Of a stretch of 64,000 nt of DNA, positions 39,361-60,106 are shown piece after piece. Below the pieces are notes generated by a model. That model made no database searches and was not told where the DNA came from. It saw only the letters and a list, made by a program, of their open reading frames with translations. The stretch's first letter is position 1; the number at the start of each line of letters is the position of its first letter. Position numbers and translations under genes: made by a program. This DNA comes from Erythrobacter sp. Lineage in GTDB: Bacteria > Pseudomonadota > Alphaproteobacteria > Sphingomonadales > Sphingomonadaceae. The stretch spans positions 102,851 to 166,850 of the forward strand of contig JBDWMF010000011.1 of NCBI GenBank assembly GCA_039972775.1. The letters are read 5' to 3'.

Positions 39361-39907
39361 GGAGTGCTGTCAGACTAATCACGGGCTTGTCTCCGATTGG
39401 CGCAAGATACCCTTTCCCAGAACTGGTTCAAACCACGGGATTTTGCCACTTAGTCAGTGCTACTGAGCGAGCGCTCTTGTAAGATTGGCAGTCAGATAGG
39501 TGGCGTTCTGAATTGAAGTGATTGTCGACGTTGGCATGGAGATATGTGAACTTCTGTAGTGATTTCATCCGCCGGAACCGCTGGATGACACACTCTTTTC
39601 TTCGGAACGGCAGATTGCTAAGTTCGCGCATGGCAGCTGGGTACGATTTGAGGCCGTCGGTCCAAAGCGATTCCACCACATCCGAACCGTCTCGTGACAG
39701 ATGTCGATGCCACATTCGGTCAGCAGATCCTCGACGTTTCGGAGCGAACGAGGAAAACGAAAATACAACATCACGGCCAAGCGGATCACTTCGGGCGAAG
39801 AGTTGAAATAACGAAACGGACTGGCTGGTTTGCGGGGTCTGGGCATGCGCCCTGCCCTAGCCTCATCCTCTTATCCGTCAGTTAGGTGCATTGGCTCTGA
39901 CAGTGCC
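39361..39907 (-). mobile_element. decayed IS6-family copy (internal deletions, frameshifted transposase)
   Basis: The left end ..GTGCTGTCAGACTAATC...GTCTCCGATTGGCGCA matches the intact IS. The ORF pieces 39565-39846 (…FRYFNSSPEVIRLAVMLYFRFPRSLRNVEDLL…) and 39428-39715 (…GLKSYPAAMRELSNLPFRRKECVIQRFRRMKSLQKF…) lie in different frames. The right end is CATTGGCTCTGACAGTGCC. Confidence 0.8.
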
Positions 39908-39950
39908 CTTTGCGATTACTATCATGGCACTCACAAGGGAACGATATCCT

Positions 39951-41057
39951 TCACTCCTGAGGCGCGCTACTTTCTCCCAAAATCAACTTTGAGAATGTCG
40001 CTTGAGCAAAGTCACCATTGGCTTTGTCAGTTGGCCAATCGCCCGTTCCGGCACATGCTGCTGCCCAAAAACTGCCATCGCTTTTCGTACTACACTGATT
40101 GTAAATGCCAGCCTTGAAATACAATGAGTCCCCGCCATAGCCATAGCGATTATCAAGGGCATCGAATGGACTGCCTGAGCCAGCATTGTTTACCAAACTC
40201 AGCGATTGATTGACTGTCCCCAGTCGCTCGCTGTGAAATGTAAGATGCATGGTATTTCGGTAAACATTGATCGTGTAGCCAAACTCTTCACCCAGAGGAA
40301 TGCCAGCGGTACCGGGATCGCTAGGATCGGACCAAACATTGCCCCAAACTGGGTAAGCGATATCAGTTCGATTGGGATCATTTTTCGCCAAATTGCGTTC
40401 ATAGGTCCAAAAAACTGATCCCATCTTGTGATCTGGAAACTTTTTGAAGAAAATCTTTATCGGCTCGTTTCCATAGCCAAACCCGCTTTGAGTATTGTCA
40501 TATTTAACGGCATGAATCTGACCGATAACTGCGGAATAAGCGGGCTTGCTGTTGGGATTAGCAGAATTTCGTGCAACGTGATCAACCCGCAGAACTGCTT
40601 CCAACTTCCCACCAATGGCAGCAAATTTGTCAGAGTCTTTACGCGCTTGAAGAGCAAAATTATTGCCAGCTCCATGCGTCTTTATCCGAGTGTTTTTGCC
40701 GCGCAGCATTTGCCGCAATTCACTGCGCGTGTTGGAAGAATTCTTGCTAGTCTTCGCCTTATTCGGCGCGACAAAGACCATACCTCCTTCAGAGTTCAGA
40801 TAGAAATAGTCGGGATGCAAATATTGCGAAATTGCATTGACGCCGACTTCGTCGACCTTTCCATCTTGGTTGTCATCAAGAGGAAGCGTGATCTTCCAAT
40901 TGCTTAAATCAAACTGACTGCCCGGCGGCGCTGATGACGCTGGAACTGATGTGTCAGGAGCGGCAGTGGCAACCCCGGTGCATCCGCAAAGCACAAGCGC
41001 TGAAGCAGCCACAATTTTGCGTAAACTCGAACGGAATGAGTGTGAGCGTAGAGCCAT
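39951..41057 (-). CDS. PL7-family alginate lyase (secreted)
   Basis: It has a signal peptide and the PL7 signature blocks RSELRQML, VIGQIHAV and LYFKAGIYNQ. Confidence 0.85.
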   Translation of the reverse strand: MALRSHSFRSSLRKIVAASALVLCGCTGVATAAPDTSVPASSAPPGSQFDLSNWKITLPLDDNQDGKVDEVGVNAISQYLHPDYFYLNSEGGMVFVAPNKAKTSKNSSNTRSELRQMLRGKNTRIKTHGAGNNFALQARKDSDKFAAIGGKLEAVLRVDHVARNSANPNSKPAYSAVIGQIHAVKYDNTQSGFGYGNEPIKIFFKKFPDHKMGSVFWTYERNLAKNDPNRTDIAYPVWGNVWSDPSDPGTAGIPLGEEFGYTINVYRNTMHLTFHSERLGTVNQSLSLVNNAGSGSPFDALDNRYGYGGDSLYFKAGIYNQCSTKSDGSFWAAACAGTGDWPTDKANGDFAQATFSKLILGESSAPQE

Positions 41058-42089
41058 CTATCTGACCACGCGGCCCGAGCCATCGCCGGACATTAGTTTT
41101 TCAACTTCTGGCACGGTGACCCGGTTGAAATCGCCAAGGATAGAGTGCTTCAAGCAACTGGCCGCAACTGCAAACTCCAATGATTGCTGACGATCTTCAT
41201 AGGCGTTCAGTCCATAGATCAAAGCAGAGGCAAAGCTATCTCCGCCGCCGACACGGTCGACAATGTCAGTCATTTCAAACCTGCGCGACAGTTTGAAACC
41301 GCCGTCACGGGTCCGCAAACAAGCCGACCAATTGTTGCGGTCTGCACTCATGCTTTCACGCAGAGTGATCGCAATCGTGTGCATATCGGGATAAATATCG
41401 AGCACCTTTTGCGAAAGCGCTTCATATTTGGCTGTATCCAGCTCACCAGATTCCACATCAACATCCACACTAATGTCGAGAGACTTTTGGCAGTCCTCTT
41501 CATTCGCAATGCCAACATCGACATATTTGACCAGCTCGCGCATTACCTCAGGCGCTGTTTTGCCATATTTCCACAATTTACCGCGGAAGTTGAAATCGCA
41601 AGACACCGTCACACCTGCCGCCTTGGCCGCTTTTACACATTCAAGGGAAAGGTCCGCTGCCGATTGGCTGAGCGCCGGCGTAATGCCGGTAATGTGCAGC
41701 CATTTGGCGCCGTCAAAGATCGCATCCCAATCAAAGTCACCCGGCCCAGCCTGACAGATCGACGACCGGTCGCGGTCATACACTACCTTAGAAGGACGCT
41801 GGTTTGCGCCTGTTTCCAAGAAGTAGATGCCGACCCGGTCGCCGCTGCGTTTCACATGGGCGGTATCCACGCCAAAGCTGCGAAGTTCGCGAATGGCCGC
41901 ATCGCCAATATCATTATCCGGCAACGCCGAGACAAAGCCTGCATTGAAGCCGTAATTGGCCAACGCAACAGCGACATTCGCCTCGCCCCCGCCAAAGGTG
42001 GCTTCGAATGCAGGGGATTGGAAAAAGCGCTCATGACCCGGTGTTTTCAGCCGCAGCATGATTTCACCAAACGAAAGGAAGTCAGTCAT
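41058..42089 (-). CDS. kdgK: 2-dehydro-3-deoxygluconokinase (PfkB family)
   Basis: 343 aa. FGEIMLRL...[12 protein letters not shown] and the C-terminal ...[16 protein letters not shown] are typical of KdgK and PfkB kinases. Confidence 0.9.
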
Positions 42090-42128
42090 TGGGGAGGAGT
42101 TGTCCTGTGTTTGAGTTACGGCTGACGT

Positions 42129-42878
42129 TTATGAAAACGCGAGGCCGCCATTGATGTCGACGTTGGTGCCGGTGATGTAGGATGCTTCATCCGATGCAAG
42201 ATAGGCGACCAGATCAGCGGTTTCCTCAGCCTTGCCTTGACGTTTCAGGCAGGTGGAGTTTGCAACATTTTCGCGCACGGCATCAGGTGTAAACTCATCA
42301 TGGAAAGCGGTGGCAATCATGCCCGGGCACAGCGCATTGGCACGGATGCCCTTCGGACCAAGCTCTTTCGCCAGACCGCGTGTCATGGTCGATAGAGCGC
42401 CTTTCGACGTTGCATAGGCAATCGCCCCGCCGCCGCCGCCATCACGGCCAGCGAGCGATGCGATATTCACAATGGCGCCGCCTTCGCTCATGTGCGGGAC
42501 GGCTGCTTGAGTGACCATAAACGCCGATGTCACATTCAATTGCATGACATAGTTCCAAAACTCTTCATCCATTTCAGCAAGAGTTTTGCGCGCCACCAGG
42601 CCGCCGGCATTATTGACCAGCACATCGACACCGCCAAAGGCATCCGCTGCAGCCGCTACGAGAGCAGTTGCATCGGCTTGCTTGGTTACGTCAGCTTTTA
42701 CCGCAACAGCTTTGCCGCCGGCCGCTTCAACTGCAGCAACGGTTGCATCGGCATCGGCTTGATTGGAGTTGTAGTTCACAACAACATTCGCGCCTTCGCT
42801 GCCTAGCTTTACACAAATCGCGCGGCCAATATCGCGGCTACCGCCGGTTACGATTGCAGTTTTGCCTTCAAATTTCAT
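42129..42878 (-). CDS. SDR-family oxidoreductase, probable DEH (4-deoxy-L-erythro-5-hexoseulose uronate) reductase
   Basis: It has TGGSRDIGRA (the TGxxxGxG variant) and the YATSK catalytic motif. The function is inferred from its position between kdgK and the uronate transporter in an alginate locus. Confidence 0.75.
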   Translation of the reverse strand: MKFEGKTAIVTGGSRDIGRAICVKLGSEGANVVVNYNSNQADADATVAAVEAAGGKAVAVKADVTKQADATALVAAAADAFGGVDVLVNNAGGLVARKTLAEMDEEFWNYVMQLNVTSAFMVTQAAVPHMSEGGAIVNIASLAGRDGGGGGAIAYATSKGALSTMTRGLAKELGPKGIRANALCPGMIATAFHDEFTPDAVRENVANSTCLKRQGKAEETADLVAYLASDEASYITGTNVDINGGLAFS

Positions 42879-42933: not shown

Positions 42934-44235
42934 TTAAGCCGATTTGGGTTTGAGTGGTTTGATTTCTCCACACAGCAGCCACACTGCGGCGATTGCTGAA
43001 AGCGCAAGAAATGCTCCAAGGATGAAAACTGACACGTAGTTTGCGCCGACCGTCATAATCGGCACGAGATATGTCAACGCGGCTGCCGTTAGCTTCGCCG
43101 CCATTCCGGCAAACCCAGAAAGTGTACCCACAGTCTTTTTACCGTAGAGATCACTAGGCAGGGTCTGCACATTGCCAATCGCAGTTTGGAAACCAAACAG
43201 AATGGTGAACATCAGGAGCAAAGCAGCCCAAGGCGTTGACGCAACGGACAAGGCCAAAAGGGCAGGCAACATAATGAGGCAGCCAAGTGTGATCGTGAAC
43301 TTACGGGTGCTATTAACACTCCATCCAGCTTTGATGCGGTTTTGCGCAAGCAAGCCGCCGAACCATGCACCGAACATAGCCCCTACATAAGGCAACCACC
43401 CAGAAGCGACCAAATCTTTGACATTGAAGTTGTGGACTTCAAACAAATAGGTCGGGATCCAAACGATAAAGAGCCACCAAATTGGATCGATAGCGGCCGA
43501 AGCAATGATAACGCCCCAGCTTTCTTTGCGCGCGAGCAGCTCGCCGGTTGTTGGATTGTAACCATCATCTGAATCGCCATCAGCGTCGACAACTTCTTGA
43601 CCGGTAAGAATATACTCACGCTCTTCTTCAGACAGCCACTCATGCGACTGAGGTGGACCTTTTACGATAGCGAGCCATGGAACCAACCAAACCAGCCCTA
43701 CCAAACCAACGATAACGAATATGATTTTCCAATCAAAATACATCGCCATATAGCCGATTAGTGGGATCGAGATGATACCGCCAATAGCCGCACCTGAGTT
43801 GAAAATACCTTGCGCCAGAGCACGTTCCTTAGACGGGAACCACTCAGCATTCGCTTTCGCTGCACCAGGCCAGTTGCCTGCCTCGGCAATACCAAGAATT
43901 GACCGAAAAATGCTGAAGCTCAGCACCCCTTGCGCAAGTGCATGAGCAGCAGTTGCAAGTGACCAGACACCTATTGACAGCACAAAACCGAGCCGTGTGC
44001 CGATCCAGTCAAATATCTTGCCGAAAATCGCCTGACCTGCTGCATAGGAAAAAATGAAAACAGTCGACACGATGCCAAGAATGTACTTGTGACCATCAGC
44101 ATCCATCTCTGGAAACAGATCTGGCGCAATGTGGGCGGGCCACAAGACGTTGATTGTTTGGCGGTCGATGTAATTGATAATTGTCGCCAAGGCGACAAGT
44201 CCAACCACCCACCAACGCAGTCCTTGCATTTTCAT
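42934..44235 (-). CDS. MFS transporter (hexuronate/ExuT-like)
   Basis: It has about 12 transmembrane segments, and ...INYIDRQTINVLWP... is typical of the anion:cation symporter subfamily. I chose the start MKMQGLRWW just after the kdgF stop. The ORF track begins at 44250. Confidence 0.85.
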   Translation of the reverse strand: MKMQGLRWWVVGLVALATIINYIDRQTINVLWPAHIAPDLFPEMDADGHKYILGIVSTVFIFSYAAGQAIFGKIFDWIGTRLGFVLSIGVWSLATAAHALAQGVLSFSIFRSILGIAEAGNWPGAAKANAEWFPSKERALAQGIFNSGAAIGGIISIPLIGYMAMYFDWKIIFVIVGLVGLVWLVPWLAIVKGPPQSHEWLSEEEREYILTGQEVVDADGDSDDGYNPTTGELLARKESWGVIIASAAIDPIWWLFIVWIPTYLFEVHNFNVKDLVASGWLPYVGAMFGAWFGGLLAQNRIKAGWSVNSTRKFTITLGCLIMLPALLALSVASTPWAALLLMFTILFGFQTAIGNVQTLPSDLYGKKTVGTLSGFAGMAAKLTAAALTYLVPIMTVGANYVSVFILGAFLALSAIAAVWLLCGEIKPLKPKSA

Positions 44236-44236
44236 T

Positions 44237-44599
44237 CTAGTTCCCCTCACTCAGAAAGTCTTCGCGCACAGGGCTGAAAGTGTCGAGCAATGAGCCCGCT
44301 TCCAAACACACTGATCCGTGAGGCAAATTGGGCGCCATATATGTGCTGTCACCAGCCCCAAGCACTTTCTTTGTCCCATCAATGAAGACTTCGAATTTTC
44401 CGCTTTCAATATAAGTCGCTTGGCTGTGAGGATGCGAATGAACATCGCCCACTGATCCCTTTTCAAACCAAACGCGCACAATCATAATCTCTGGGCCGTA
44501 ACCCAAAATCTGGCGCGAGATCCCTCCCCCAAGATCTTCTTTTTCCGTGTTCGCTGCCTCAACAAAAGCTGGGCTGGATGGGCTAACCAAGGTGGCCAT
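44237..44599 (-). CDS. kdgF: cupin-domain protein KdgF (unsaturated uronate linearisation)
   Basis: 120 aa. The cupin motifs ...GDVHSHPHSQATYIESG... and ...MAPNLPHG are present. It lies between PL17 and the transporter, as in known alginate and pectin loci. Confidence 0.8.
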   Translation of the reverse strand: MATLVSPSSPAFVEAANTEKEDLGGGISRQILGYGPEIMIVRVWFEKGSVGDVHSHPHSQATYIESGKFEVFIDGTKKVLGAGDSTYMAPNLPHGSVCLEAGSLLDTFSPVREDFLSEGN

Positions 44600-46819
44600 T
44601 TACATCTCTCCTGCGGATTGAACGACAGCCATAAAGCCCGTCCAACTTACATCTTTTCCGCGAAATTCGACAGTATGCTTTTTGTTCGCATCCTGGTCGT
44701 AAGATATCGCCAAAGTTGCAGTTTTACCGCCAAGCGTCGTAATTTCTACCAGATCATATTGCCCCAACTGTTGATGCTTGAGGCTAGCGATTTGACTATT
44801 GCTTTCAATCGTCTGCTCTGTCGCACCATCGTATAACCCGTGACTTTCCAACGCGCTAACAAAGGTGCCTTCACCGCCGCTTTGCATTCGCTGGATAATG
44901 ATCGGCTGACGGCGCAAGTTGAAATTGGGATCATTCGCGCCGCTTTCCGCTAGTATCACTTCCATCCCATCTTGGGCAGCAAATCGGTATGTATAGAACC
45001 GCCCATCAAGCAGAATGGTTAGGAAGCTCTTATCACCTTCAGGCTGACCAACCGCATCAACCCAAATGTGCTGATATCCATTGTCATTGCCGAGCACGGG
45101 GCGCGAAGTGACGCTCTTATCCGTGTCAAATCCGACCTGCATGATATGACCATTGTAATGCAGCGGCAGATCAAGCTGATGGCTCCCGTCGCCATTCCCG
45201 CCCTCTGCGCGCAGCACGTCAAGAATAACGGGCGAATCCAGCCCTTCGACGTCAACCATCGCCAACGTGCGGGTGAAGGCGATGCCTGCGTCAGGATAGG
45301 CAGTCGTGATCGCGGCAGTCGTTGCCTGAAGTCCGTCTTTATCGGAGAAATATAGTTGCTGAGGCGCGTGTTGGTCCGCCAACTTCACATCGCCGCCAAA
45401 GTGGCTTTGCTCGTTCACAACCAGCGTGTTGTGCGCAATGGTCTGTTTCGCCCAAGTCTCGTTCTCTGGCAGGTAACGCCCGCCTTCTTTCGCCTCAATA
45501 TTGAGGAAACGCGCCGCACCATAGTCGCGCACCACTTCATTGCCGTTGTCGTAAAGCTGCCAGCTCAATTTATCGAAATGGCCGTGGCCAAAACCTTGGC
45601 TGGCATTTTTCGCTACCAGCGCCGTGTGATCGAGGCCTTCATCCTCGCCCTCGCGCAGGACTGCGATTGCGCCTGCATTGCCTTCTGGCCCATCGGATAA
45701 GAGAACAGAGCGGAAATCAAACGGTTTGGCTTTGCCAGCCGCCAGATCGCGTGTCAGCTCTAGCCCGCTTGGGCGTAGAACGGTACGCCCCTGAAATTCT
45801 GCTATGGAAAGCAAGCCAGGGTCCTTCGTCTGGCCATAAGCAATCGCCACGCCTTCATAAAGCTCAGCGGTGTTCAGGCTTTTATCTTTTATCGCATCGT
45901 TAAACGGAAAAAACAGGCCGCCATAGGTCAGCTGGATCGTGGTGTTGATTGCCTTCAACAAAATTCCATCGCGGTGCTGGAATATCTTACGCTCAGGCTC
46001 ATTGCGCTCAATCGCATCACCAAAAACGATGAAAGGCAGCATAGCAAAGCGCTGATAATATGGCCCTTCGGTGTAATAACCATCGGGCGAAAACAGCAAT
46101 TCAGTTTGGCGGATAAAGCCGGCCTTACCTGACTTGTCCGACCCCAAAAGCGCGCGGTCGACCATATCCTGATCGCCTAGCAAATAGCCCGTCATACCGA
46201 CGCCCGCCGTTGCCCAAGTGGCGTGATTATGGATCTTGTTGAAAGTCGCCTTGCTATCAACCGAAAGGAACTTCGCCGCAGGTCGAAACACATTATTGTC
46301 AATGTTTTCGCGTTCTGCGACCGGCAGAGTATCGCGGATCGCTTCATAGGCTTGCACCGTGTGAACCAACCACATCGCATCGTTCAAAACCTGCCAAAAC
46401 AGCCGCCCAACATTCTGGTTAGCCTTGGCTGGATGATCGCCCAGTGTTGGGTACATTTCGGCATATTCGAGCAACATAGCGCGGATGTATTCGCGGTACT
46501 GTGCCTCGCCTGTAATCTGGAACAATTGGCCAGCCAAATACATGGCGCGGAAATTGCGTTTGTGCTGCTCGTGAGTGTAACCACCGCCTGGATCTTTAGG
46601 TTGAGGAACCACTGGTCCCGCAGCAATCATGCCATCAACAAAGGTACGGGCGCGCGCCATTTCACTTGCATAGAGCGGCGGCAAATCAGTCTTTGCCGTC
46701 ATAGAGCCGGCCTGAACGCTTGCGCTCGGCACAACGCTAGAAGGCGCAGCATTAGCCGCAGGAATAGCAAGACCAAGCGCAACTGCCGCGCCGGTTACGA
46801 TTGTGACAGAACGCTTCAT
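44600..46819 (-). CDS. PL17-type oligoalginate lyase (alginate-lyase domain plus heparinase II/III-like domain)
   Basis: 739 aa with a signal peptide. ...GGGYTHEQHKRNF... and a C-terminal heparinase II/III-like region (...HGHFDKLSW...HNTLVVNEQSH...) are present. The size is typical of PL17. Confidence 0.8.
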   Translation of the reverse strand: MKRSVTIVTGAAVALGLAIPAANAAPSSVVPSASVQAGSMTAKTDLPPLYASEMARARTFVDGMIAAGPVVPQPKDPGGGYTHEQHKRNFRAMYLAGQLFQITGEAQYREYIRAMLLEYAEMYPTLGDHPAKANQNVGRLFWQVLNDAMWLVHTVQAYEAIRDTLPVAERENIDNNVFRPAAKFLSVDSKATFNKIHNHATWATAGVGMTGYLLGDQDMVDRALLGSDKSGKAGFIRQTELLFSPDGYYTEGPYYQRFAMLPFIVFGDAIERNEPERKIFQHRDGILLKAINTTIQLTYGGLFFPFNDAIKDKSLNTAELYEGVAIAYGQTKDPGLLSIAEFQGRTVLRPSGLELTRDLAAGKAKPFDFRSVLLSDGPEGNAGAIAVLREGEDEGLDHTALVAKNASQGFGHGHFDKLSWQLYDNGNEVVRDYGAARFLNIEAKEGGRYLPENETWAKQTIAHNTLVVNEQSHFGGDVKLADQHAPQQLYFSDKDGLQATTAAITTAYPDAGIAFTRTLAMVDVEGLDSPVILDVLRAEGGNGDGSHQLDLPLHYNGHIMQVGFDTDKSVTSRPVLGNDNGYQHIWVDAVGQPEGDKSFLTILLDGRFYTYRFAAQDGMEVILAESGANDPNFNLRRQPIIIQRMQSGGEGTFVSALESHGLYDGATEQTIESNSQIASLKHQQLGQYDLVEITTLGGKTATLAISYDQDANKKHTVEFRGKDVSWTGFMAVVQSAGEM

Positions 46820-49116: not shown

Positions 49117-49205
49117 CCATATTCCCCTTCTATTATCGCTTACGACTATAGAAGCGAAGCTCAGACTGTCAATCAATCTGGACTGCCAAAACCATATTTT
49201 CTGTA

Positions 49206-49213
49206 ATACCAAT
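49206..49213. promoter_or_regulatory. ATACCAAT box upstream of the PL6 gene
   Basis: This is one of six direct copies of ATACCAAT that I saw only in intergenic regions of the alginate locus. Confidence 0.4.
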
Positions 49214-49214
49214 T

Positions 49215-50072: not shown

Positions 50073-50083
50073 GAAAACTCGAA

Positions 50084-53000
50084 CTAGAATTTGAAACGAA
50101 GTCCAGCAAAGTAGCGGGGTCCGTAAACCAACACTTGACTCAAATCATCTGCAGCACCGCGGAAGTCGGTACGCGGTTCGTTGAAGAGGTTGATCCCTTC
50201 AAGAGAGAACCGCACATTATCCGTGATTTTGTATGAAATACGCGCTTCAAATACACCAACATCATCTACAAACCGCAGACGGCCCGGCGTGGAGACAAAC
50301 TGCTGGAAGTAGTCGCTGCGATATTTGTAAACACCTTGCAGACTCAGCGGGCCAGTTTCGTAATAGGCTTGCGCAGAGAGAACGTGCTTGGAGAATCCCG
50401 GAAGGTTACCCGGCGCAACGAGACCATTAATCTGCGTTGTGCTCCCATCCGCATTTTCAATTGTTGAAGCGCCAAGAACATCATCTTCAAACTCAAAGTT
50501 TGAATCTGCATAGTTATAGCTCAACTTGAAGCCCAGGCCATCAAATGGAGCAGGCAGATAGCTGAAACGGTGCGCCGCGGTCACTTCGATACCATAGATC
50601 CGGCTGGTTTCATCAGAGGTTTCGATCCGCGAGGTCAATACCTCAACAGCGCCACCTTCGATGTTATAGGTTTCTAGGGCCGACACGCCTTCAAACCCAC
50701 CATTGAAGCTCTTGTAATAGGCGTTGAAGGCTAGAATCGTATCAGCGTCTGGATACCATTCTAGGCCTGCATCGAAGTTCCACGATAGAAGTGCTTCTGA
50801 GAATGGGTTACCGGTCGAACTCGCGCCGTTGATCCCATTCTGCACTGCCTCTTCACGCGTTGCAAAATCGTCATTGGCATTCAGGCTGAATATCCGGCCC
50901 GCGCCAAGGTCTGAAGGATCAGGACGCGACAGCGAGCGATACACCCCAAAGCGCGCAAGCAGATCAGGTTGGACATCGGCGACAAGATTAAAGCTTGGCA
51001 AAAACTCGGTGTAGGAATTCTTGAACACATTGCGTTCGATATCCACCGTCGGGTCTTCTGCCAATGCAAAACCGAATGTACCATCGCCATCATTGTCGGT
51101 TGTGATCAAGCTCAACGCCGTGCGGAAACCAGTTGAAGTGATCGAGTTGCTCACTACCCTGACACCGATGTTTCCTCGTACCGGAGTGGTGCCAAGCTCT
51201 GTGTCGAAGTTGGCTTGGATGTAACCAGCCCAACTGCGCTCTTCGATATCCGTGTTTTGGATTGAGTCAAAATCACCAGTCGGGAAAACGACATTTCCAT
51301 CGGCATCAATGGTTAAGCCTGACGGATCTTCGCGCTCCAATACGCGGGCAATACAGCGCGCATCAAAGGTCGCAAAAGTGTTCGATGTTCCAATGACATT
51401 CCCATCCAAATCGACATTGGTGATAAGCGGGTTGCCTCCGGAGATCGAAGATAGAAAGCCAGTTTCAGGAAAATTGGTCCGGCATTCTTGGTTGGCAATG
51501 AACAGCGCGCCTGAGCCATCTGTATCATTATAAGTATTTTCAAAACGGCTAGTTCCGTTCGATGCGCCAGGAACGTCACGGTAGACAAGTTGCTGATAGC
51601 GCGTACCGGCCATGAGACTGGAAAAGAAGCCATCCATTTCATATTCGACATCGCCGCGGACAGCCCAAATCTCATTGAAACGGTCTTGCTCCAAATCAGC
51701 GCGCAAACGCGGATCGTTGGCAAACAAAGTGTAATCGGTCACATCGAAGTTCTGTGTGACAAAGTTCAGACCTTCCGAGCCGTTTTGAAAGATCTGGGTC
51801 ACAGTTTCGATCCGGTCATCCGTCCCGTTTGTCCGGTCTGCATTGGGCGTTTGATCGCTCTCAAACGCTTCTGGGAAGAACGGGTTACCATCGGCATCCG
51901 TGTTGCCAAAGATGCTTTCACCGTCCTCTGTCCGGAACCGGATCTGCACAGCCTCCTCGATCCGTTGAGTACGTGAGTAAGACGCGTCAAGCGCTACGTT
52001 CAAGCGGTCAGTCGGACGAAACTCGATAGAAAGACCACCACCGTAATATTCTTCGTCACGCTCGAGATACTCACTTACCGCCTCAACCCGCTGCTCATTA
52101 GTGAACTGACGCAGCGCGCCGGTAGGCGTTGTGATTAAGTCAAAACCTGAAATGGTGTTGGGATCACCGGGGCCGTCAATCCGGCGGCTTTCAGCGAAGT
52201 TCAAATCGCTGCGCTGCTCGGCTTGGACACGCTTGGAGTATTGGAAGTCTGCGTTAATATCGACGTCTGGTGACGGCTGATATTGAATCGCGCCAAAGAA
52301 GCTATCGCGGCGCTCTTCTGTGATGTTTGACCGCAGGGCATAGCTGTTGCGAGCGATCAGGAACTCGTCGGTGACGGTGCCATCGCGCAGTCCAGCGATC
52401 GTGTCGGAGCTCGTGTCGCAATTGCCATCGTCGAAAACGCCATCGCCTGTGTCAGTCGGGTCGATCACACAAGCACGGACCGTGCCCGATACGCGCGCCT
52501 CCTGCTCTGGATTGCTAGAATCAACACGCGAATAACCGAGCGAAACACCCAGCTCACCATCACCAAGATTGAATTGATCGACGTAACTTAGCGTCGCGCG
52601 ATAGCCGAATTTGTTGAAACGCTGATCAGGGTCAATATCAAGATTATCAGGGTTGATGTTGAGTTTAAAATCACCCTGAATACGCTGCTTGCCATAATCG
52701 AGCGGCTTGAGAGTATCGAGCGTAATCTGGCCGGCCACACCGCCCTCGATGTAGCTTGCAGCTTGCGTCTTATAAATACCGACTTTGTTGAACAATTCCG
52801 ATGGGAAAATGCTGAAGTTTACAGAACGGTCGCCGCTACCGTTTGTTGTCGCACGCCCGTTCACCACTGTTGAACTAAGGAAAGGACCAAGGCCGCGGAT
52901 TGAGATTTCTGTTGCGCCGCCATTTTCACGGTGCGAACCAGCACCAGTCAAAGTTTCCAGCGCTTCACCAATCGAAAGCGCAGGAAGGTCACCAATTTCA

Positions 53001-53251
53001 TCCGCCGAAAGCGCGTCAAAGACTTCGGTCGAATTACGCTTTTCATCGATTGAGTTTTGGATAGTCCGGCGGATACCAGTAACAACGATACCACCATCTT
53101 CTTCAGCAATTTCTTCCGCAGCAGCATCTTGTGCAGCAGCCTCTTGTGCAAACGCCGCCTGAGGTACTGCGATCACAGATAGCGCAGAACCCGCCAACAA
53201 AACTGTATTGAAACGCGACGCGTGCGCGCCCTTGCGAAACTTAGACATCAA
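50084..53251 (-). CDS. TonB-dependent receptor (alginate-locus associated)
   Basis: 1055 aa. It has a signal peptide ending AFAQ and a plug region, ...IVVTGIRRTIQNSIDEKR...DEIGDLPALSIGEAL.... It ends in ...AGLRFKF. Confidence 0.9.
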   Translation of the reverse strand: MMSKFRKGAHASRFNTVLLAGSALSVIAVPQAAFAQEAAAQDAAAEEIAEEDGGIVVTGIRRTIQNSIDEKRNSTEVFDALSADEIGDLPALSIGEALETLTGAGSHRENGGATEISIRGLGPFLSSTVVNGRATTNGSGDRSVNFSIFPSELFNKVGIYKTQAASYIEGGVAGQITLDTLKPLDYGKQRIQGDFKLNINPDNLDIDPDQRFNKFGYRATLSYVDQFNLGDGELGVSLGYSRVDSSNPEQEARVSGTVRACVIDPTDTGDGVFDDGNCDTSSDTIAGLRDGTVTDEFLIARNSYALRSNITEERRDSFFGAIQYQPSPDVDINADFQYSKRVQAEQRSDLNFAESRRIDGPGDPNTISGFDLITTPTGALRQFTNEQRVEAVSEYLERDEEYYGGGLSIEFRPTDRLNVALDASYSRTQRIEEAVQIRFRTEDGESIFGNTDADGNPFFPEAFESDQTPNADRTNGTDDRIETVTQIFQNGSEGLNFVTQNFDVTDYTLFANDPRLRADLEQDRFNEIWAVRGDVEYEMDGFFSSLMAGTRYQQLVYRDVPGASNGTSRFENTYNDTDGSGALFIANQECRTNFPETGFLSSISGGNPLITNVDLDGNVIGTSNTFATFDARCIARVLEREDPSGLTIDADGNVVFPTGDFDSIQNTDIEERSWAGYIQANFDTELGTTPVRGNIGVRVVSNSITSTGFRTALSLITTDNDGDGTFGFALAEDPTVDIERNVFKNSYTEFLPSFNLVADVQPDLLARFGVYRSLSRPDPSDLGAGRIFSLNANDDFATREEAVQNGINGASSTGNPFSEALLSWNFDAGLEWYPDADTILAFNAYYKSFNGGFEGVSALETYNIEGGAVEVLTSRIETSDETSRIYGIEVTAAHRFSYLPAPFDGLGFKLSYNYADSNFEFEDDVLGASTIENADGSTTQINGLVAPGNLPGFSKHVLSAQAYYETGPLSLQGVYKYRSDYFQQFVSTPGRLRFVDDVGVFEARISYKITDNVRFSLEGINLFNEPRTDFRGAADDLSQVLVYGPRYFAGLRFKF

Positions 53252-53507: not shown

Positions 53508-56500
53508 TTATAGTTTGAACGTTGCACCAAAAGTAATGCGGCGATCAGGCAGACCTTGGAAACAAGTCAGTGCCCCGTCATTGACGCAGAATTGCTCAAT
53601 ATTCGACTTGGTGATGTTCACACCCTCAACACCGATATTGATGTTGTCGGTAAGATCGTAAGTGATGCTTCCGTTAAGCTGACCGCGCGCCCCAGTAACA
53701 GTCGGGAAACCGAATGTTGAGTTGAGCGATGCACCGCCCGCTGTATCCAGCGTCCGGAAGCTGTCACGCCATGTGTAACGAAGGCGAGCCGACAGGCCGT
53801 ACTTCTCATAATACAATGTGGCGTTGTAAGCGTGCTTCGACAGGTCAAGCAGACCCTGAACGCGCGTTACCGGCACTACAAGCGTCGGATTGATCGCTTG
53901 GAATGCATCTTCTGCACGGCCAGAGTTCGTGTTGAACGCCTCGCCACCACTAAACTTTTGGTAAGTGTAGTTCGCCAGAATACCAAAGCCCGATGCAAAG
54001 CCCAATGTGTCTTCGAAGTTCGACAGATCATATTGGAAGGCAACTTCGATACCGGTCTGCTTTGTGTTGGCAGTATCGTTCACCTGCGTTTGGATTGGCA
54101 CACAAATACCATTGCCGAGCTGGTCTGACAGGACGTTACGGTCAGCGATTGGGTTAAAGATACCGCCAGCTTCACATGGATCAGTGATGTCGCGGAAGCC
54201 ATTGGCATCTTCAAACGGCTCTTGAACCTGCGTCACATGAAGGTTTGAACGGTTCTTGTGGAAGAAACCAACGCTGAACACTGCCGCCGGGGCAAAATAC
54301 CAATCAACTGAGGCATCGTATGACCAGATGGTTTCTGGCGCGAGCGATGGATTACCAATCGAAACAGCGGCGTTCGGGCTAGTGCCGAAGCTTACCGATG
54401 AAGATAGCTGATTGAAGTCCGGACGGTTAATGTCACGGCCGGCGCTAGCACGAATGACGATATCGTCAGTCGCCTCTAGGATCAGGTTAACCCGCGGCAA
54501 CCACTCACTATAGCTTCCGCTTGTTACAACCGGCACACCGGTTCCGCCAAGTGTCGTAATACCCAGCGAGTCAATCGATGTATCGACATAACGCACACCC
54601 GCATTGCCGCGCAGCGCGCCAAAGTCGAAATTGGCCTGCAGATAAGCAGCGTGTGTTTCTTCATCAATGCTGAAGAACGCGTCGTTCGAAGGCGTTGGGT
54701 CACCGACTGATCCATTGGTGGTATTCAGCGCCGCCTGAAGGATGTTCAAAGTTCCTTCTTGGTCGTTAAACGCAGCATCTGGATCGATGATTACGAAGTT
54801 GCGGAACGCCAATTCGCGCCCATCAGCTTCGCCAAAGAAATCGTTTCCTTGGACCAGCAATTCCGAGAACAAAGTGCCGCTAGGGCTGTTCGCAATCGAG
54901 CCAGTACCAAAACTAGAACCGATGTCGTTGAATTCGCTCGAACGGCGGTTCCAGCGATAGCCTGCATCAACAGAGGAAATGAAGCCAATCGATGCCGATG
55001 TGTCATAACTAAGGTCGAAACGAATGGCATCGTCTGCGTTTTCAGTGGTGTCTCGGCCAACATTCACGCCATCAAGGACCACATTGGCACCGCTCAGGTC
55101 TGTAAGCTGTCCTACAGTAGGCGCAAACGGCGAAGCGAAATCGACACCAAATGTCAGTGCGCCGCCGGTCAGATCATAGATGAATGGAACGCTGTTATCG
55201 TTTGATGTACCATCTAGCGGCGTCAGCGGGTTAGGATTGATGAAGTTCAGCGTGGTGCTGAGGTTCGGGTTTACTGTATCTGAGCGCGAACGTGACGCTT
55301 CGAAATGCACCGAAAGATCGCCAGTTTCCCAGTCAAACCCCCAACGCAGGATGCTGCTGTCGGTAACACGAGCGCCAGTATCTGATGAGAAACGCAAGTT
55401 TGGATCATCATCATCCTGCGCAAGATTGGGCTGGATCGTGCCCGTCAGAGCCGCCTGGATTGAACCCAAATCAACGCCATCGATTACACCCAGTTCAATC
55501 GTTTCAAACGTATCAGGAACATTGACAGTATCAACGCTGCTGACGCCAGACGCTTGGATACGCGTACTTTCCTGACGACGCTCTTGATCGTTGTAGAAAC
55601 CGTCGACGAATACAGTAAAGTTTGGCGCTGCCTCCCACTCAAACGAGCCGGAAAGGTTGATGGTTTCAAATGAAAAGTCTTCTGTTTCTTGGTTTAAGAA
55701 CTGAATACCCAAGAATGGGAAGTCCGGACCAGGTGCTCCAGCCGCCGTTACGGAGCCATTGGCGAAAATTGGGTTGTCACGGTCGACACGAGGACGGAAA
55801 GAAATCGCGTCCTGCTTTGTGTAGCTACCCGCAATCACAAGGCCCATATCACCAGCGCCGGTTGACCAATTGTCACCAAACGTAGCGGAAATCCGAGGCT
55901 GCACTGATTCAGCGAGCTCTGAATATTCACCCTGCACGCGAACAGCAACAAGCGTCTCGGTTAGGTCCAGCGGACGGATTGTGCGCAGATTGATCGTACC
56001 GCCAACGGCGCCTTCGATTGTTTCCGCTTGAGGCGCCTTAATCACTTCAACCGATGAAATGATCGCTGCGTTCACATCTTCAAAATTGATGCCGCCGCGG
56101 CCCGAACCCGAACCCAGCGTGGTTACGCCGTTAATCGCGGTGCGGTTGTCGTTTGTACCGCGAATTTGAACGCCAGTACCAACACCAGCCGTACGAGTGA
56201 TTTGAACACCCGTTACGTTCTCAAGCACTTCAGCAAGGTTTTGGTCAGGCAGCTTACCGATGTCTTCCGCCTGAATAACTTCGATCAAGCTGTCCGCGTT
56301 ACGCTTTTCGTTAAGAGCGCTTTGAAGTGAACTGCGGATACCCGTAACGATGATCTCGCCACCTTCCGCTTCCCCAGCTGCTGGAGCCGCGTCTTGCGCA
56401 CTCGCCGCCGTTGCGGGCAACATAAGCGCAGGCAAAAACGCTGCAGAAACCATTAACGCTTTGCGATTCAAGCCAAGTTCGCGACCCAAACCAGCACGGG

Positions 56501-56519
56501 GTGTCCGTGTAACTTCCAT
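53508..56519 (-). CDS. TonB-dependent receptor (alginate-locus associated)
   Basis: 1003 aa. It has the plug region ...IIVTGIRSSLQSALNEKR...EDIGKLPDQNLAEVL... and ends in ...TFGATFKL. Confidence 0.9.
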   Translation of the reverse strand: MEVTRTPRAGLGRELGLNRKALMVSAAFLPALMLPATAASAQDAAPAAGEAEGGEIIVTGIRSSLQSALNEKRNADSLIEVIQAEDIGKLPDQNLAEVLENVTGVQITRTAGVGTGVQIRGTNDNRTAINGVTTLGSGSGRGGINFEDVNAAIISSVEVIKAPQAETIEGAVGGTINLRTIRPLDLTETLVAVRVQGEYSELAESVQPRISATFGDNWSTGAGDMGLVIAGSYTKQDAISFRPRVDRDNPIFANGSVTAAGAPGPDFPFLGIQFLNQETEDFSFETINLSGSFEWEAAPNFTVFVDGFYNDQERRQESTRIQASGVSSVDTVNVPDTFETIELGVIDGVDLGSIQAALTGTIQPNLAQDDDDPNLRFSSDTGARVTDSSILRWGFDWETGDLSVHFEASRSRSDTVNPNLSTTLNFINPNPLTPLDGTSNDNSVPFIYDLTGGALTFGVDFASPFAPTVGQLTDLSGANVVLDGVNVGRDTTENADDAIRFDLSYDTSASIGFISSVDAGYRWNRRSSEFNDIGSSFGTGSIANSPSGTLFSELLVQGNDFFGEADGRELAFRNFVIIDPDAAFNDQEGTLNILQAALNTTNGSVGDPTPSNDAFFSIDEETHAAYLQANFDFGALRGNAGVRYVDTSIDSLGITTLGGTGVPVVTSGSYSEWLPRVNLILEATDDIVIRASAGRDINRPDFNQLSSSVSFGTSPNAAVSIGNPSLAPETIWSYDASVDWYFAPAAVFSVGFFHKNRSNLHVTQVQEPFEDANGFRDITDPCEAGGIFNPIADRNVLSDQLGNGICVPIQTQVNDTANTKQTGIEVAFQYDLSNFEDTLGFASGFGILANYTYQKFSGGEAFNTNSGRAEDAFQAINPTLVVPVTRVQGLLDLSKHAYNATLYYEKYGLSARLRYTWRDSFRTLDTAGGASLNSTFGFPTVTGARGQLNGSITYDLTDNINIGVEGVNITKSNIEQFCVNDGALTCFQGLPDRRITFGATFKL

Positions 56520-56881: not shown

Positions 56882-56898
56882 CCCCCCCCCCTTTTTTT
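56882..56898. repeat. homopolymeric tract C10 T7
   Basis: GCCCCCCCCCCTTTTTTTCC is read directly from the sequence. It lies in a ~700-bp intergenic region. Confidence 0.9.
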
Positions 56899-57098
56899 CC
56901 AAGCGAGCTATTGGGCAAGGCAGCCATGTAAACACCAGCAAAAGCAGATAAACTTAGCCTCAATCTCAGTTTTTTGCCCGCGAAATGTTGCTTATGCTCG
57001 GTCAGAGCTCGGCGCATTGCAACCGAGGAAGGTTCCTGATCCCGCTGTCTTGTCCGCTACAGAACAGCCTCAAGAAATCCGCTCTTTGATAGATATTC

Positions 57099-57115
57099 AA
57101 CCAAATGGTTTGGTT
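57099..57115. promoter_or_regulatory. AACCAAA-TGG-TTTGGTT palindrome upstream of the NRAMP-like/uxuA pair
   Basis: Perfect 7-bp arms lie about 110 nt upstream of the ATG at 57224. The ACCAA core is related to the ATACCAAT box. Confidence 0.35.
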
Positions 57116-57223
57116 AGCCCAATATGCAGGACAATAGCGTGTAGACGATGCGACCAATCAGCCTTATCGATGTATGTCAGGTTAAAAAAGGGGCAGAAAC
57201 GTGACGGTAACCGAGAAGCGCGT

Positions 57224-58483
57224 ATGACATCATTATCGCGCCATGCTGGCTGGAAATCCAAACTTGCCCTTTTCTTGCCCGGGATATTCCTACTCGGCTT
57301 TAACATTGGCACTGGCAGCGTCACGACCATGGCAACCGCTGGTGCGAACTATGGGATGAGCCTGCTCTGGACGGTAATGATCTCATGCGCTGCGACCTAT
57401 TTGATGATCGCAACCTATGGCCGTTATACGCTTGTTACGGGTGAAACCGCCCTTGAGGCTTTTCGTAAGCATATCCACCCAGCCGTTGGCGTATTCTTTA
57501 TAGCCGCATTGGGCGTGGGTGTATGCGCCAGTGTAATGGGCGTTATGGGGATCGTCGCCGAAATCAGTTTTGAATGGTCAAAGACTTTTATCGATGGCGG
57601 GATTGATCCGCTGTATTGGGCGGCATTTTTTTGCGCAGTTGCCTACTTCATTTTTTGGAATGGAAGCACGCAGGTTTTTGAACGCACCTTGGCGGTGATC
57701 GTTGCTATTATGGCGGCCTGCTTTGTGCTCAATTTCTTCATCCTGATGCCTCCGGTCGCAGAAATGGCGGCAGGCCTTATCCCATCAGTGCCCGAAGTTT
57801 CAGAAAGCGAGGCTGGGCCATTTTTGCTCATTGCATCAATGGTGGGAACCACGATTTTTTCAGGCCTGTTTATAATGCGTACTACGCTGGTGAAGGAGGC
57901 TGGCTGGACAATTGAGCACGACCGCCAGCAGCGCCGCGATGCTGGATTCGCAGCGATCATGATGTTTGTTATCAGCGCTTCAATTATGGCCGCAGCGGCG
58001 GGCAGCCTTTTTGCGCAAGGCATCGGTTTGGACCGTGCTTCTCAAATGATAGGGCTGCTCGAGCCGCTGGCCGGTCCACTAGCGGTTTCGATCTTCGCCA
58101 TAGGCATCATTGCAGCGGGCGTATCTTCTCAGTTTCCAAATCTACTGATGATCCCATGGCTGTTATGCGATTTCCGCTCAACACCGCGCGATATGACACA
58201 GTGGAAATACCGACTTTTCGTTGGCGCAATCTCTTTGTTGGGGCTCGTAGTACCACTGTTCGATGCAAGGCCAGTGCTAGTGCTCATCATGTCGCAAGCC
58301 TTTAATGTTGTACTGCTTCCTGTCACGGTTGCCTGCATCATATATCTTGGCAGCAGGGCAGACTTGATGGGTGAATATCGCAATTCACTGCTCACCAACA
58401 TTGGGCTAGTTGGTCTTTTCCTATTCTCCCTACTGACGGGTTATATGGGTTTTCAAGGCCTGATGGGCTTAATCGGCACATAG
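57224..58483 (+). CDS. NRAMP-family transporter-like membrane protein
   Basis: I chose the start at MTSLSRHAGW (57224). ...LPGIFLLGFNIGTGSVTTMATAGANYGMSLLW... matches the NRAMP first-helix region (the D-P-G-N position reads F-N-I-G-T-G). It has about 11 transmembrane segments. Confidence 0.75.
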   Translation: MTSLSRHAGWKSKLALFLPGIFLLGFNIGTGSVTTMATAGANYGMSLLWTVMISCAATYLMIATYGRYTLVTGETALEAFRKHIHPAVGVFFIAALGVGVCASVMGVMGIVAEISFEWSKTFIDGGIDPLYWAAFFCAVAYFIFWNGSTQVFERTLAVIVAIMAACFVLNFFILMPPVAEMAAGLIPSVPEVSESEAGPFLLIASMVGTTIFSGLFIMRTTLVKEAGWTIEHDRQQRRDAGFAAIMMFVISASIMAAAAGSLFAQGIGLDRASQMIGLLEPLAGPLAVSIFAIGIIAAGVSSQFPNLLMIPWLLCDFRSTPRDMTQWKYRLFVGAISLLGLVVPLFDARPVLVLIMSQAFNVVLLPVTVACIIYLGSRADLMGEYRNSLLTNIGLVGLFLFSLLTGYMGFQGLMGLIGT

Positions 58484-58497
58484 GTAGAGATAGGAAT

Positions 58498-59679
58498 ATG
58501 CGCGAATCTTGGCGATGGTTTGGACCGAATGATCCGGTTAGTCTGGATGAAATCCGGCAGACTGGCGCGACCGATATCGTCAGCGCGCTGCACGATATTC
58601 CCATCGGAAAGGCTTGGCCGAGAGAGAAAGTCGCCGCGCATCGTGCTTTGATTGAGGCCGGTAATGTTCCCGGTTCGCAGTTGGAGTGGTCTGTAGTCGA
58701 GAGCATTCCAGTGCATGACGATATTAAGCTCGCGGCACAGGGAAGCGGCGCCTACACCGATGCATGGATCGAAAGCATGGAAAACCTTGCGGCAGAAGGT
58801 ATCAAAACCATCTGCTACAATTTCATGCCGGTGATCGATTGGACGCGAACCGATCTGCGATATCAGCTTCCCAATGGCGCTTTTGCGCTCAGGTTCGATC
58901 AAGATCGTTTCGCGGCATTTGACCTATTCATTTTGCAGCGTGAAGGCGCTGAGAACGATTATCGCGAAACTGAAATCGCGCGCGCCGCTGCTACCCATGC
59001 GGGCATGTCTGATGAGGAGATAGCTCTTCTTACCCAGACCATCATCGCCGGTCTTCCAGGGAAGATGACGGATGCATACTCGCTCGAAGATTTCCGCGCA
59101 GCATTGGCCCGCTATGCAAATGTCGATCACGATACGCTGCGGACCAACCTTGTTCGGTTTTTGAATCGGATCCTTCCAGTCGCTGAAAAGTTAGATGTAA
59201 GGCTGGCAATTCACCCTGATGATCCGCCGTGGGATATGTTTGGATTGCCCCGCGTGATATGTACGCCGGACGATTTAGAGGCGCTCTTCGCTGCTGCGCC
59301 CAGTGAAAACAATGGCATCACTCTGTGTGTTGGCACATATGGAAGCCGGCCAGATAACGACCTGCCGCAAATGGCGCGCGATTACCGCGACCGCATCCAC
59401 TTTGCCCATCTGCGCGGGGTAAGCCGCGATACAGATAAGCCGCGGACCTTCATTGAAGCCAGCCACCTTGATAGCGATATCGATATGGTCAGCGTAATCC
59501 GAAACCTTCTTGAAAACGAGAACGCGAACCAGCGGGAGATTTTCATTAGGCCTGATCATGGGCATTTGATGATGGGCGATGTTAGCAAGGCTTCGAATCC
59601 GGGCTATTCAGCCATTGGCAGGATGAAGGGGCTAGCCGAAATCCGCGGCGTAGTGCGGGCGCTGTCTGCCATCGATTGA
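58498..59679 (+). CDS. uxuA: mannonate dehydratase UxuA
   Basis: The N-terminus is MRESWRWFGPNDPVSLDEIRQTGATDIVSALH. The length of 393 aa is typical of UxuA. Confidence 0.9.
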   Translation: MRESWRWFGPNDPVSLDEIRQTGATDIVSALHDIPIGKAWPREKVAAHRALIEAGNVPGSQLEWSVVESIPVHDDIKLAAQGSGAYTDAWIESMENLAAEGIKTICYNFMPVIDWTRTDLRYQLPNGAFALRFDQDRFAAFDLFILQREGAENDYRETEIARAAATHAGMSDEEIALLTQTIIAGLPGKMTDAYSLEDFRAALARYANVDHDTLRTNLVRFLNRILPVAEKLDVRLAIHPDDPPWDMFGLPRVICTPDDLEALFAAAPSENNGITLCVGTYGSRPDNDLPQMARDYRDRIHFAHLRGVSRDTDKPRTFIEASHLDSDIDMVSVIRNLLENENANQREIFIRPDHGHLMMGDVSKASNPGYSAIGRMKGLAEIRGVVRALSAID

Positions 59680-59694
59680 TGTGTTTTTTTGGGG

Positions 59695-60106
59695 GGTGCT
59701 GTCAGACTAATCACGGGCTTGTCTCCGATTGGCGCAGGTTGCCCTTCCCCGTTCGACTCTCAAGCCATGAGATTTTGCCACTCAGTCAGTGCTACTGAGC
59801 GAGCGGTCTTGTAAGATTGGCGGTCGGATAGGTGGCGTGCTGAATTGAAGTGATTGTGGGCGTTGGCATGGAGATATGTGAACTTCTGTAGTGATTTCAT
59901 CCGCCGGAACCACTGGATGACACGCTCTTTTCTTCGGAACGAGAGAAAGAGGAAAACGGACATACGACATCACGACCAAGTGGATCACTTCGGGCGAAGA
60001 GTTGAAATAACGAAACGGACTGGCTGGTTTGCGGGGTCTTGGCATGCGCCCTGCCCTAGCCTCATCCCCTTATTCGTCAGTTAGATGCATTGGCTCTGAC
60101 AGTGCC
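59695..60106 (-). mobile_element. decayed IS6-family copy (larger internal deletion)
   Basis: The left end GGTGCTGTCAGACTAATCACGGGCTTGTCTCCGATTGGCGCA is near-identical to the copy at 39361. The ORF pieces translate to ...RKERVIQWFRRMKSLQKFTYLHAN...HLSDRQSYK and ...FRYFNSSPEVIHLVVMSYVRFPLSL. The right end is CATTGGCTCTGACAGTGCC. Confidence 0.8.

Follow-up and report, generated by a model that had tools for sequence, protein, structure and literature searches.

The DNA considered here, hereafter the window, is a 64,000-nt stretch of contig JBDWMF010000011.1 from an Erythrobacter sp., an organism known from metagenome assemblies only. It carries a cluster of 12 alginate-related genes lying between two decayed insertion sequences (ISs) of the IS6 family, which we call remL (the left remnant) and remR (the right remnant) and whose limits were set by alignment to an intact IS of the same family at 22291-23133 (Table 1). 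The two remnants are co-oriented, forming a direct pair, and bracket 19,787 bp.

The gene content of the bracketed segment is that of an alginate-utilization pathway. An earlier note, made from the letters of the sequence alone, had listed polysaccharide lyases of families 7, 6 (with two domains) and 17 (PL7, PL6 and PL17), KdgF, a short-chain dehydrogenase/reductase (SDR), KdgK, a major facilitator superfamily (MFS) transporter, a GntR regulator, two TonB-dependent receptors (TBDR1 and TBDR2), an Nramp transporter and UxuA, and comparisons with Pfam, NCBIfam and PDB bore out the whole list. Both endo- and exo-acting alginate lyases are present in the form of PL7, an AlyGC-like PL6 and an Alg17c-like PL17, on all three of which export signals were read by eye. 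PL7 matches the structures PDB 4ozx (1e-41) and 4be3, while PL6 matches AlyGC (PDB 5gkd, E 9e-221) over residues 64-777 and probably has its true start at Met33. The steps that act on the monomer are represented by a predicted KdgF (PDB 5fq0 KdgF, E 3e-18; 2pfw, E 1e-35), a predicted reductase of 4-deoxy-L-erythro-5-hexoseulose uronate (DEH) and a predicted KdgK. We regard the SDR as the probable DEH reductase from its context and from its match to A1-R' (PDB 4tkl, E 7e-46), which stood mid-list and was not the top match. The kdgK gene is separated from the upstream SDR gene by 39 bp, and its product aligns with positions 244-580 of NCBIfam model NF041633, a fusion of KHG/KDPG aldolase and sugar kinase (E 4e-146), scoring under the cut-off because the aldolase half is absent. 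The MFS transporter likewise matches TIGR00893 under its cut-off (E 3e-64). A second assembly, GCA_039981875.1, calls the Nramp gene as 419 aa (from ~57224). The aldolase of 2-keto-3-deoxy-6-phosphogluconate (KDPG) is missing, as had been claimed: none was found among the open reading frames (ORFs) scanned in the window.

Table 1. Positions of the IS elements, alginate genes and relic discussed in the text, in window coordinates.
Feature	Position	Strand	Remarks
PL7'/kdgK' relic	5920..6128	-	PL7' 3' end 5920-5979 and internal kdgK' 5998-6128 with in-frame stop
Intact IS6-family element	22291..23133	-	843 bp, 250-aa transposase; reference copy
remL, IS6-type remnant	39363..39907	-	545 bp; both terminal repeats kept (AGTGCTGTCAG... 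/ ...CTGACAGTGCC)
PL7 alginate lyase	39951..41057	-	N-terminal export signal (by eye); terminal gene of conserved module; PF08787 E 6e-55
PfkB-family kinase, probable KdgK (2-keto-3-deoxygluconate kinase)	41058..42089	-	PF00294
SDR oxidoreductase, probable DEH reductase	42129..42878	-	PF13561
MFS transporter, anionic-sugar type (D-galactonate transporter subfamily)	42934..44250	-	PF07690
KdgF-like cupin	44237..44599	-	PF07883
PL17 exo-oligoalginate lyase	44600..46819	-	PF05426, PF07940, PF22686; PDB Alg17c 4nei E 4e-234
Two-domain PL6 alginate lyase, AlyGC type	46816..49212	-	PF14592
GntR/FCD-family regulator	49215..49955	-	PF00392 and PF07729
TonB-dependent receptor 1 (TBDR1)	50084..53251	-	Plug domain; TIGR01782 E 7e-136, above cut-off
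TonB-dependent receptor 2 (TBDR2)	53508..56519	-	Module member in nearer relatives L097, L099
Nramp-family divalent-metal transporter	57017..58483	+	PF01566; NF037982 above cut-off
UxuA mannonate dehydratase	58498..59679	+	PF03786 E 1e-115; TIGR00695 E 3e-142
remR, IS6-type remnant	59695..60106	-	412 bp; both termini kept

When the two flanking remnants are aligned over their full shared length, 377 of 405 positions match (28 mismatches, 93.1% identity), and they have both termini in common, GGTGCTGTCAGACTAATC... (AGTG... in remL) and ...GCATTGGCTCTGACAGTGCC. Each is ~81% identical to the intact IS, and within the window they are mutual nearest full-length relatives (93% vs at most 86% for others). 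The description in the earlier note of two decayed IS6 copies in direct orientation, at 39361-39907 and 59695-60106, is accurate to within 2 bp, and its view that they are far closer to each other than to the intact IS agrees with this alignment. On the strength of the ~81% identity we assign the remnants to what, by sequence comparison, is a second IS6 subtype, distinct from the intact IS. Their right end, GGCACTGTCAGAG, starts like the IS26 terminal repeat. The transposase gene of remL is broken by two internal deletions of 54 bp and ~244 bp, which leave 69 and 96 of 250 residues in two frames (tblastn), while remR has a single internal deletion of ~430 bp that spans both of those in remL and has its joint at a TTCGGAAC microhomology.

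The intact element belongs to the IS6 family. Its length of 843 bp and its ends (GGTGCTGTCAG / GGTGTTGTCAG) agree with the size (~700-890 bp) and short terminal inverted repeats of the family, the product of its transposase ORF (22355-23107) matches PF13610 (DDE_Tnp_IS240, E 1.5e-43) and passes the NCBIfam IS6 equivalog NF033587 (191 bits vs a cut-off of 125), and its nearest plasmid matches carry an IS6-family transposase annotation. Besides the flanking pair, at least four further IS6 relics or miniature inverted-repeat transposable elements (MITEs) lie in the window, all co-oriented with the other copies: a stub at 6427-6564, a MITE-like copy of 98 bp at 22114-22211, and a nest of IS6 ends at ~8458-8738. 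In the nest, an orphan left-end fragment is accompanied by a MITE of 141 bp (inverted repeats of 18 nt) and by a transposase-5' stub that ends at 8724; the letters directly after it, 8725-8738, are an orphan right end belonging to the remnant subtype (GCTCTGACAGTGCC). In all, five IS6 sites in 64 kb share one orientation, and a repeat search of the window found no inverted IS6 pairs. Such clustering and shared orientation are typical of IS26-type arrays.

Copies of these ends are also frequent beyond the window. In the source runs the IS ends reach 5-6x genome depth at 95% likeness and ~13x at 88%, accompanied by further flanks and another MITE-like copy elsewhere in the population, and this 64 kb appears to contain about half of the IS6 ends in the population. 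Depth in the interior of the remnant subtype reaches no more than ~1.5-2x, so no intact master copy of it is evident. The MITE-like copy of this subtype outside the window is at single-genome depth, on Logan contigs of 3.4-5.1 kb from X1, X3 and X4, where it joins 39402 to 39852 via 17 other letters (ATCGGTTAGGTGGCGTT). Taken together, the debris suggests an old burst of the IS6 subtype concentrated in this region, which makes the bracketing less improbable by chance and is also what would be expected of IS26-type local activity.

To place the locus in its genomic context we compared its left flank with 80 fetched loci (L001-L080), four of which (L001, L002, L003 and L004) are informative close relatives. 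Both L001 and L003 keep the block from a nucleoside transporter to a NosD-like gene (28029-39191) in synteny, which identifies the left flank as native backbone. The best relatives of the NosD-like gene itself (37902-39191) are found in Porphyrobacter and Altererythrobacter metagenome-assembled genomes (MAGs), at 78-90% amino-acid identity, and the window is accordingly assigned to the Erythrobacteraceae; at the DNA level the flank is ~75% identical to the sampled relatives, which are distant. Beyond the NosD-like gene, an SDR and an MFS gene follow in L001, a LigJ/PrpF/RraA-type aromatic cluster with a LysR regulator in L003, FecR and a CHASE2 cyclase in L004, and an IS6 remnant of its own and then a YghU-like glutathione S-transferase (GST) in L002. 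Alginate genes and a Rieske gene are missing from this place in all 80 loci, and a tblastx comparison of the upstream regions of the four close relatives, looking for a common ancestral neighbour, found nothing shared. The left IS boundary coincides exactly with this synteny break, at a hypervariable slot. The alginate locus at the same position in IS-free relatives, which the earlier note had named as evidence for vertical inheritance, was not seen in the four informative ones. On the right, the locus is followed by a Rieske oxygenase and a SnoaL-fold partner (89% / 84% in relatives L086 and L087). The zinc-dependent alcohol dehydrogenase (Zn-ADH) beside PL7 in L100 was considered as an orthologue of the ADH beside the Rieske pair in L086 and rejected at 30-40% identity.

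The flank genes have a wider distribution of their own. The NosD-like beta-helix lipoprotein gene and the adjacent gene for a 388-aa protein with a weak Cytochrome_P460 match (36735-39191 together) are kept as a pair in nearly all of the 80 loci, whose sources span Alpha- and Gammaproteobacteria, among them Maricaulis, Glycocaulis, Microbulbifer and Rhodanobacter. In two MAGs that bear the label Marinomonas sp., L003 (JBDVRS010000006.1) and L097 (JBDVMM010000241.1), the window's gene order recurs at high identity: eight flank genes are shared with L003 (71-92% at the amino-acid level) and the alginate module with L097. Since the window's other relatives are Erythrobacteraceae, these labels are probably wrong or the bins mixed.

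The alginate module itself is by no means restricted to this genome. PL17 homologues at 64-72% identity occur in many Erythrobacteraceae genera, and PL17 and PL7 homologues at 62-72% are widespread through the genera of the family. Altererythrobacter sp. RZ02 carries TBDR1-GntR-PL6-PL17-KdgF-MFS-SDR-KdgK-PL7, followed by an iron-dependent ADH (Fe-ADH); L097 and L099 carry TBDR2-TBDR1-GntR-PL6-PL17-KdgF-MFS-SDR, and L100 carries KdgK-PL7, followed by the Zn-ADH. On this comparison the conserved unit is one of ten genes, TBDR2-TBDR1-GntR-PL6-PL17-KdgF-MFS-SDR-KdgK-PL7. Its genomic context is different in every genome seen, the neighbours past PL7 being Fe-ADH in RZ02, Zn-ADH in L100 and the IS with the NosD-like gene in the window, and no IS6 sequence lies beside the module in RZ02, L097, L099 or L100. 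The RZ02 module (GCA_012972675.1) resembles that of the window in its nine genes of identical order, with KdgK 89% and PL7 79% identical; unlike the window, it has no IS6, no TBDR2-Nramp-UxuA and other neighbours, and its PL6, KdgF and MFS are just 54-57% identical. Upstream of the module, RZ02 (L088 1-6254) has a second kdgK, 90% identical to that of the window, together with a PF05426 (alginate_lyase-domain) lyase, a GH78-like rhamnosidase and a sulfotransferase, a region that may be a second uronate or ulvan-type cluster.

Identity to these relatives is uneven along the locus. Compared with L097, TBDR2, TBDR1, PL17, KdgF and SDR are 77-87% identical and GntR, PL6 and MFS 55-63%; when L099 is included, the latter three (42934-44250 and 46816-49955) are 55-66% identical and the genes between and beside them 71-87%. 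This mosaic points to the allelic replacement of single genes inside the alginate operon, and the locus has thus also been reshaped by recombination without an IS. Searches farther afield returned little: an exact-protein look-up has no identical protein to the window PL7 on record, a metagenome scan with PL7 returned six loci, all of a lone PL7 at 53-67% identity and none informative, and no plasmid donor was found, the whole segment giving one trivial Vibrio PL7 match and the PL17 protein at most 47% identity.

A second alginate locus once existed in the same genome. The PL7'/kdgK' relic is 90.8% identical to kdgK (5998-6128 against 41425-41555) and 76% identical to the 3' end of PL7 (5920-5979), and its kdgK' is nearest to the kdgK of its own genome (91% vs 81% and 75% for the two RZ02 copies). 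Third codon positions account for 17 of 28 differences between the relic and the live genes, where ~9 are expected, so most of the divergence arose with both copies under selection. Judging by this pattern, two functional alginate alleles once coexisted or diverged, one of them decaying afterwards and recently. The suggestion of the earlier note that the relic records movement or duplication of this locus type in the genome is in keeping with this. To the side away from PL7', the relic is followed by a 5'-truncated tRNA-like piece, a 15-codon start of a P4-type integrase (by eye) and the IS6 stub. The tRNA-like piece (6153-6227) is of class II, with a T-arm GGTTCGAGTCC, an end in CACCA and, by eye, a CAG (Leu) anticodon; some 155 bp past it come the first 15 codons of the integrase (MALTNTAIRDAKPRD, 6383-6426), cut by the stub at 6427. 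The stretch 6153-6426 resembles the attachment end of a genomic island after erosion. Neither ARAGORN nor Rfam at gathering scores found an RNA gene in the window (the tRNA-like piece has E 0.38).

That the junctions across the IS repeats are mis-joins, an artefact of assembling a genome from a metagenome, is barely credible. Logan unitigs (k = 31) do break inside the remnants, copies of which have stretches of 34-38 nt in common; these shared stretches are, however, far shorter than the read length, and unique single-copy unitigs of 123, 311 and 89 nt tile the interior of remL. The second public MAG assembly, GCA_039981875.1, crosses both junctions at 99.98-99.995% identity, with remL (in L098) and remR (in L081) crossed identically to the window assembly. 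In four runs a single Logan unitig of 19,848 bp (39878-59725) spans the locus, and depth is level from flank to locus to flank: 160 vs 193 and 134-177, 18.4 vs 17.6 and 17.3-18.6, 35.5 vs 35 and 34-37.5, and 277-287 vs 273 and 264-289. Depth in these four runs thus gives no sign of a sub-population without the locus. Apparent back-joints in the reads, candidates for circular or locus-free forms, proved to be cross-mapping of a 34-nt repeat and not circles, and the organism is absent from the long-read runs that carry its label (X5, X6, X9 and X10).

We give about an even chance to the reading that the unit is a fossil IS6/IS26-type pseudo-compound transposon, or equivalently a translocatable-unit or cointegrate insertion, and infer that the segment was brought in by the IS pair itself. 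This reading draws on the same-type direct pair, the synteny break, the IS-free module elsewhere, the relic and the two concordant assemblies. The proposal of an IS6 pseudo-compound transposon in the earlier note stands, then, as regards a direct same-IS bracket and a self-contained cargo, and lacks a target duplication, an empty site and a second context.

Several observations weigh against a unit carried in by the IS pair. Neither remnant has a usable transposase, the large deletions having taken out most of the DDE domain, and no transposition-competent IS flanks the alginate segment at either end. Since neither transposase gene has survived, the element is a fossil that offers no current route of spread, and its movement as a unit could not be demonstrated. 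Mobilization in trans by the only intact IS in the window is doubtful, since this differs from the outer end of remR at 6 of 15 positions. No 8-bp target duplication surrounds the unit: its outer flanks, CGACAGGG on one side and CTTAAAGC on the other, agree at 3 of 8 positions, so the matching 8 bp that the earlier note had looked to were absent in any pairing of flanks. With a drift of only 7% a duplication should still show, and its absence is thus real. According to a review of the family, pseudo-compound transposons of IS6 type are invariably flanked by direct repeats, while target repeats are not required of arrays or of IS26-based units (PMC7986276), and on the latter ground we treat the missing duplication as neutral and not fatal. 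The intact IS also lacks an 8-bp duplication (flanks CCTCCAAT/ATTGGCAG). Composition is equally unhelpful: GC, GC at third codon positions and tetranucleotide usage run across the borders without a step (r = 0.92 between the locus and the native block), where a change had been looked for, a flatness that fits a related donor or long residence. In the compositional profiles the receptor genes cluster with another receptor gene, owing to protein type. No second IS-locus-IS unit was found in the genome contigs, metagenome contigs and plasmids searched, and the empty site could not be reconstructed via the right flank, the neighbours of the Rieske gene in L086 and L087 being unrelated on both sides; the search for the same segment in other contexts or for an empty site that the earlier note had suggested thus gave neither. 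Nramp and UxuA, moreover, are extras relative to RZ02 and absent from its module. Finally, the PL7' end of the relic lies directly against a TetR gene with no IS between them, so the relic does not duplicate the IS-bounded unit; it supports the arrival of a second, closely related locus in the lineage without showing the IS pair to have been the carrier.

The bracket could also be coincidental, which we consider a real possibility though somewhat doubtful: the locus would have come to, or been rearranged into, this flexible slot by some other route, for instance homologous recombination between related strains or genomic-island traffic, and two abundant IS6 copies would have flanked it later, by separate insertions or IS-IS recombination, and then decayed. 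The density of the debris fits this well, since with five sites in 64 kb and the end depths given above both the window and the genome are rich in relics of the same IS, and the bracketing is less telling for it; the direct pair of one type that the earlier note took as a bracket is real but not unique. Some unitigs are common to remR and another copy but not to remL, and the reverse is also seen, so that remL and remR are not shown to be products of one event. In L002 (Altererythrobacter MAG JALZVZ010000175.1) an IS6 remnant (245-588) lies on the same side of the NosD-like gene with no alginate locus, on a contig that ends just past it, within the end of the YghU-like GST gene. This remnant keeps a part of the transposase lost from both remL and remR, and as an independent insertion it suggests that the site may simply attract IS6; that it is an orthologue of remL is unprovable, the identity of 70-85% being at the level of the IS family and the spacers unalignable. 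The missing target duplication, the flat composition and the mosaic of the locus, in which recombination acted independently of any IS, are likewise as a coincidental bracket would have them. On the other hand, neither remnant has an 8-bp duplication of its own (remL CGACAGGG/CTTTGCGA, remR TTTTGGGG/CTTAAAGC), so simple independent insertions are unsupported too, and it counts against coincidence that the remnants are each other's closest full-length relatives in the window, share an orientation and place the IS boundary exactly at the synteny break.

Vertical inheritance at the site, with an ancestral locus lost or replaced in the relatives and IS copies inserted later, appears improbable. 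The spread of PL17 and PL7 homologues through the Erythrobacteraceae and a composition indistinguishable from that of the neighbouring native block would both suit an old resident, and the relatives are distant enough for loss in each of them to be possible. Yet all four informative relatives are without the locus at the site and have four unrelated gene sets in its place, RZ02, L100 and L097 carry the module in other contexts, and the relic is a second location of the locus in the same genome.

If the IS pair did carry the segment in, the history may have run as follows. A burst of IS6-family activity in an Erythrobacteraceae lineage would have joined a ~20-kb segment, comprising the conserved ten-gene alginate module with Nramp and UxuA, into a hypervariable chromosomal slot beside the NosD-like/dihaem-cytochrome/old yellow enzyme operon, leaving one direct IS copy at each end. 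The incoming locus would have coexisted with an older homologous copy, which decayed to the PL7'/kdgK' relic, and both IS copies would later have lost their transposase genes by internal deletion and drifted to 93% identity. By now the unit would be fixed in the chromosome and unable to move, maintained by selection for alginate use. In the predicted pathway, the exported PL7 releases oligomers that the TBDRs take up, periplasmic PL6 and PL17 cut these to the unsaturated monomer, which the MFS transporter would import, and KdgF, SDR and KdgK would turn it into KDPG under the control of GntR, with a KDPG aldolase presumably encoded elsewhere. A bolder version, in which this is a natural, non-clinical translocatable-unit array of IS26 style in the chromosome of a marine alphaproteobacterium, whose entire 12-gene pathway travelled as one IS6-borne unit and displaced a resident allele, strikes us as rather unlikely.

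The closest parallels in design are the pseudo-compound transposons and translocatable-unit arrays of the IS6/IS26 group (Tn610/IS6100, Tn4352/IS26; PMC7986276), in which a direct pair of IS6-family copies surrounds a cargo as it does here. IS26-type arrays also have further same-orientation copies nearby, and missing target repeats are compatible with cointegrate or targeted routes (PMC7986276). Unlike those transposons, the unit in the window has two deletion remnants without transposase, no 8-bp repeat, and no known second context or circular form, and, set in the chromosome of a marine alphaproteobacterium, it carries a carbohydrate pathway of 12 genes instead of a resistance gene. Among the Sphingomonadales themselves, IS6100 flanks the carbazole genes of Sphingomonas sp. 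XLDN2-5 (PMC2848856) and the lin genes for hexachlorocyclohexane (PMC4478539, PMC5144681), and there, as here, an IS6-family element flanks whole catabolic sets, for whose spread it is held responsible. The IS6100 copies are reported to be intact and near-identical between strains, and the clusters to occur in several contexts, which is the evidence for movement, whereas the window has a different, ~81%-diverged and extinct subtype and no second context was found for it. As for the cargo, the alginate utilization system of Zobellia galactanivorans and the polysaccharide-utilization locus PUL 1 of Pseudoalteromonas (PMC6262041) share PL6, PL7, PL17, KdgF, SDR, KdgK, MFS, TBDR and GntR with the window, but the cluster described here has no SusD partner and no aldolase, and has Nramp and UxuA in addition. 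The design is thus already known from IS6100 catabolic clusters and IS26 transposons, and the novelty lies in cargo and habitat.

Horizontal transfer of alginate loci between marine lineages has been inferred from phylogeny in a study that names no vehicle and in whose text the word transposase is absent (PMC6262041), and vehicles of such transfer are rarely seen. The locus in the window is a fossil with circumstantial support, a testable lead in which the mechanism is not demonstrated. If the unit did travel IS6-borne, the horizontal spread of alginate loci, long inferred, would have a first concrete vehicle. Elements of the IS6 family are known to move whole catabolic clusters in sphingomonads and resistance genes in clinical bacteria, and an IS6-bounded polysaccharide locus would extend this mechanism to the use of algal glycans in the ocean.

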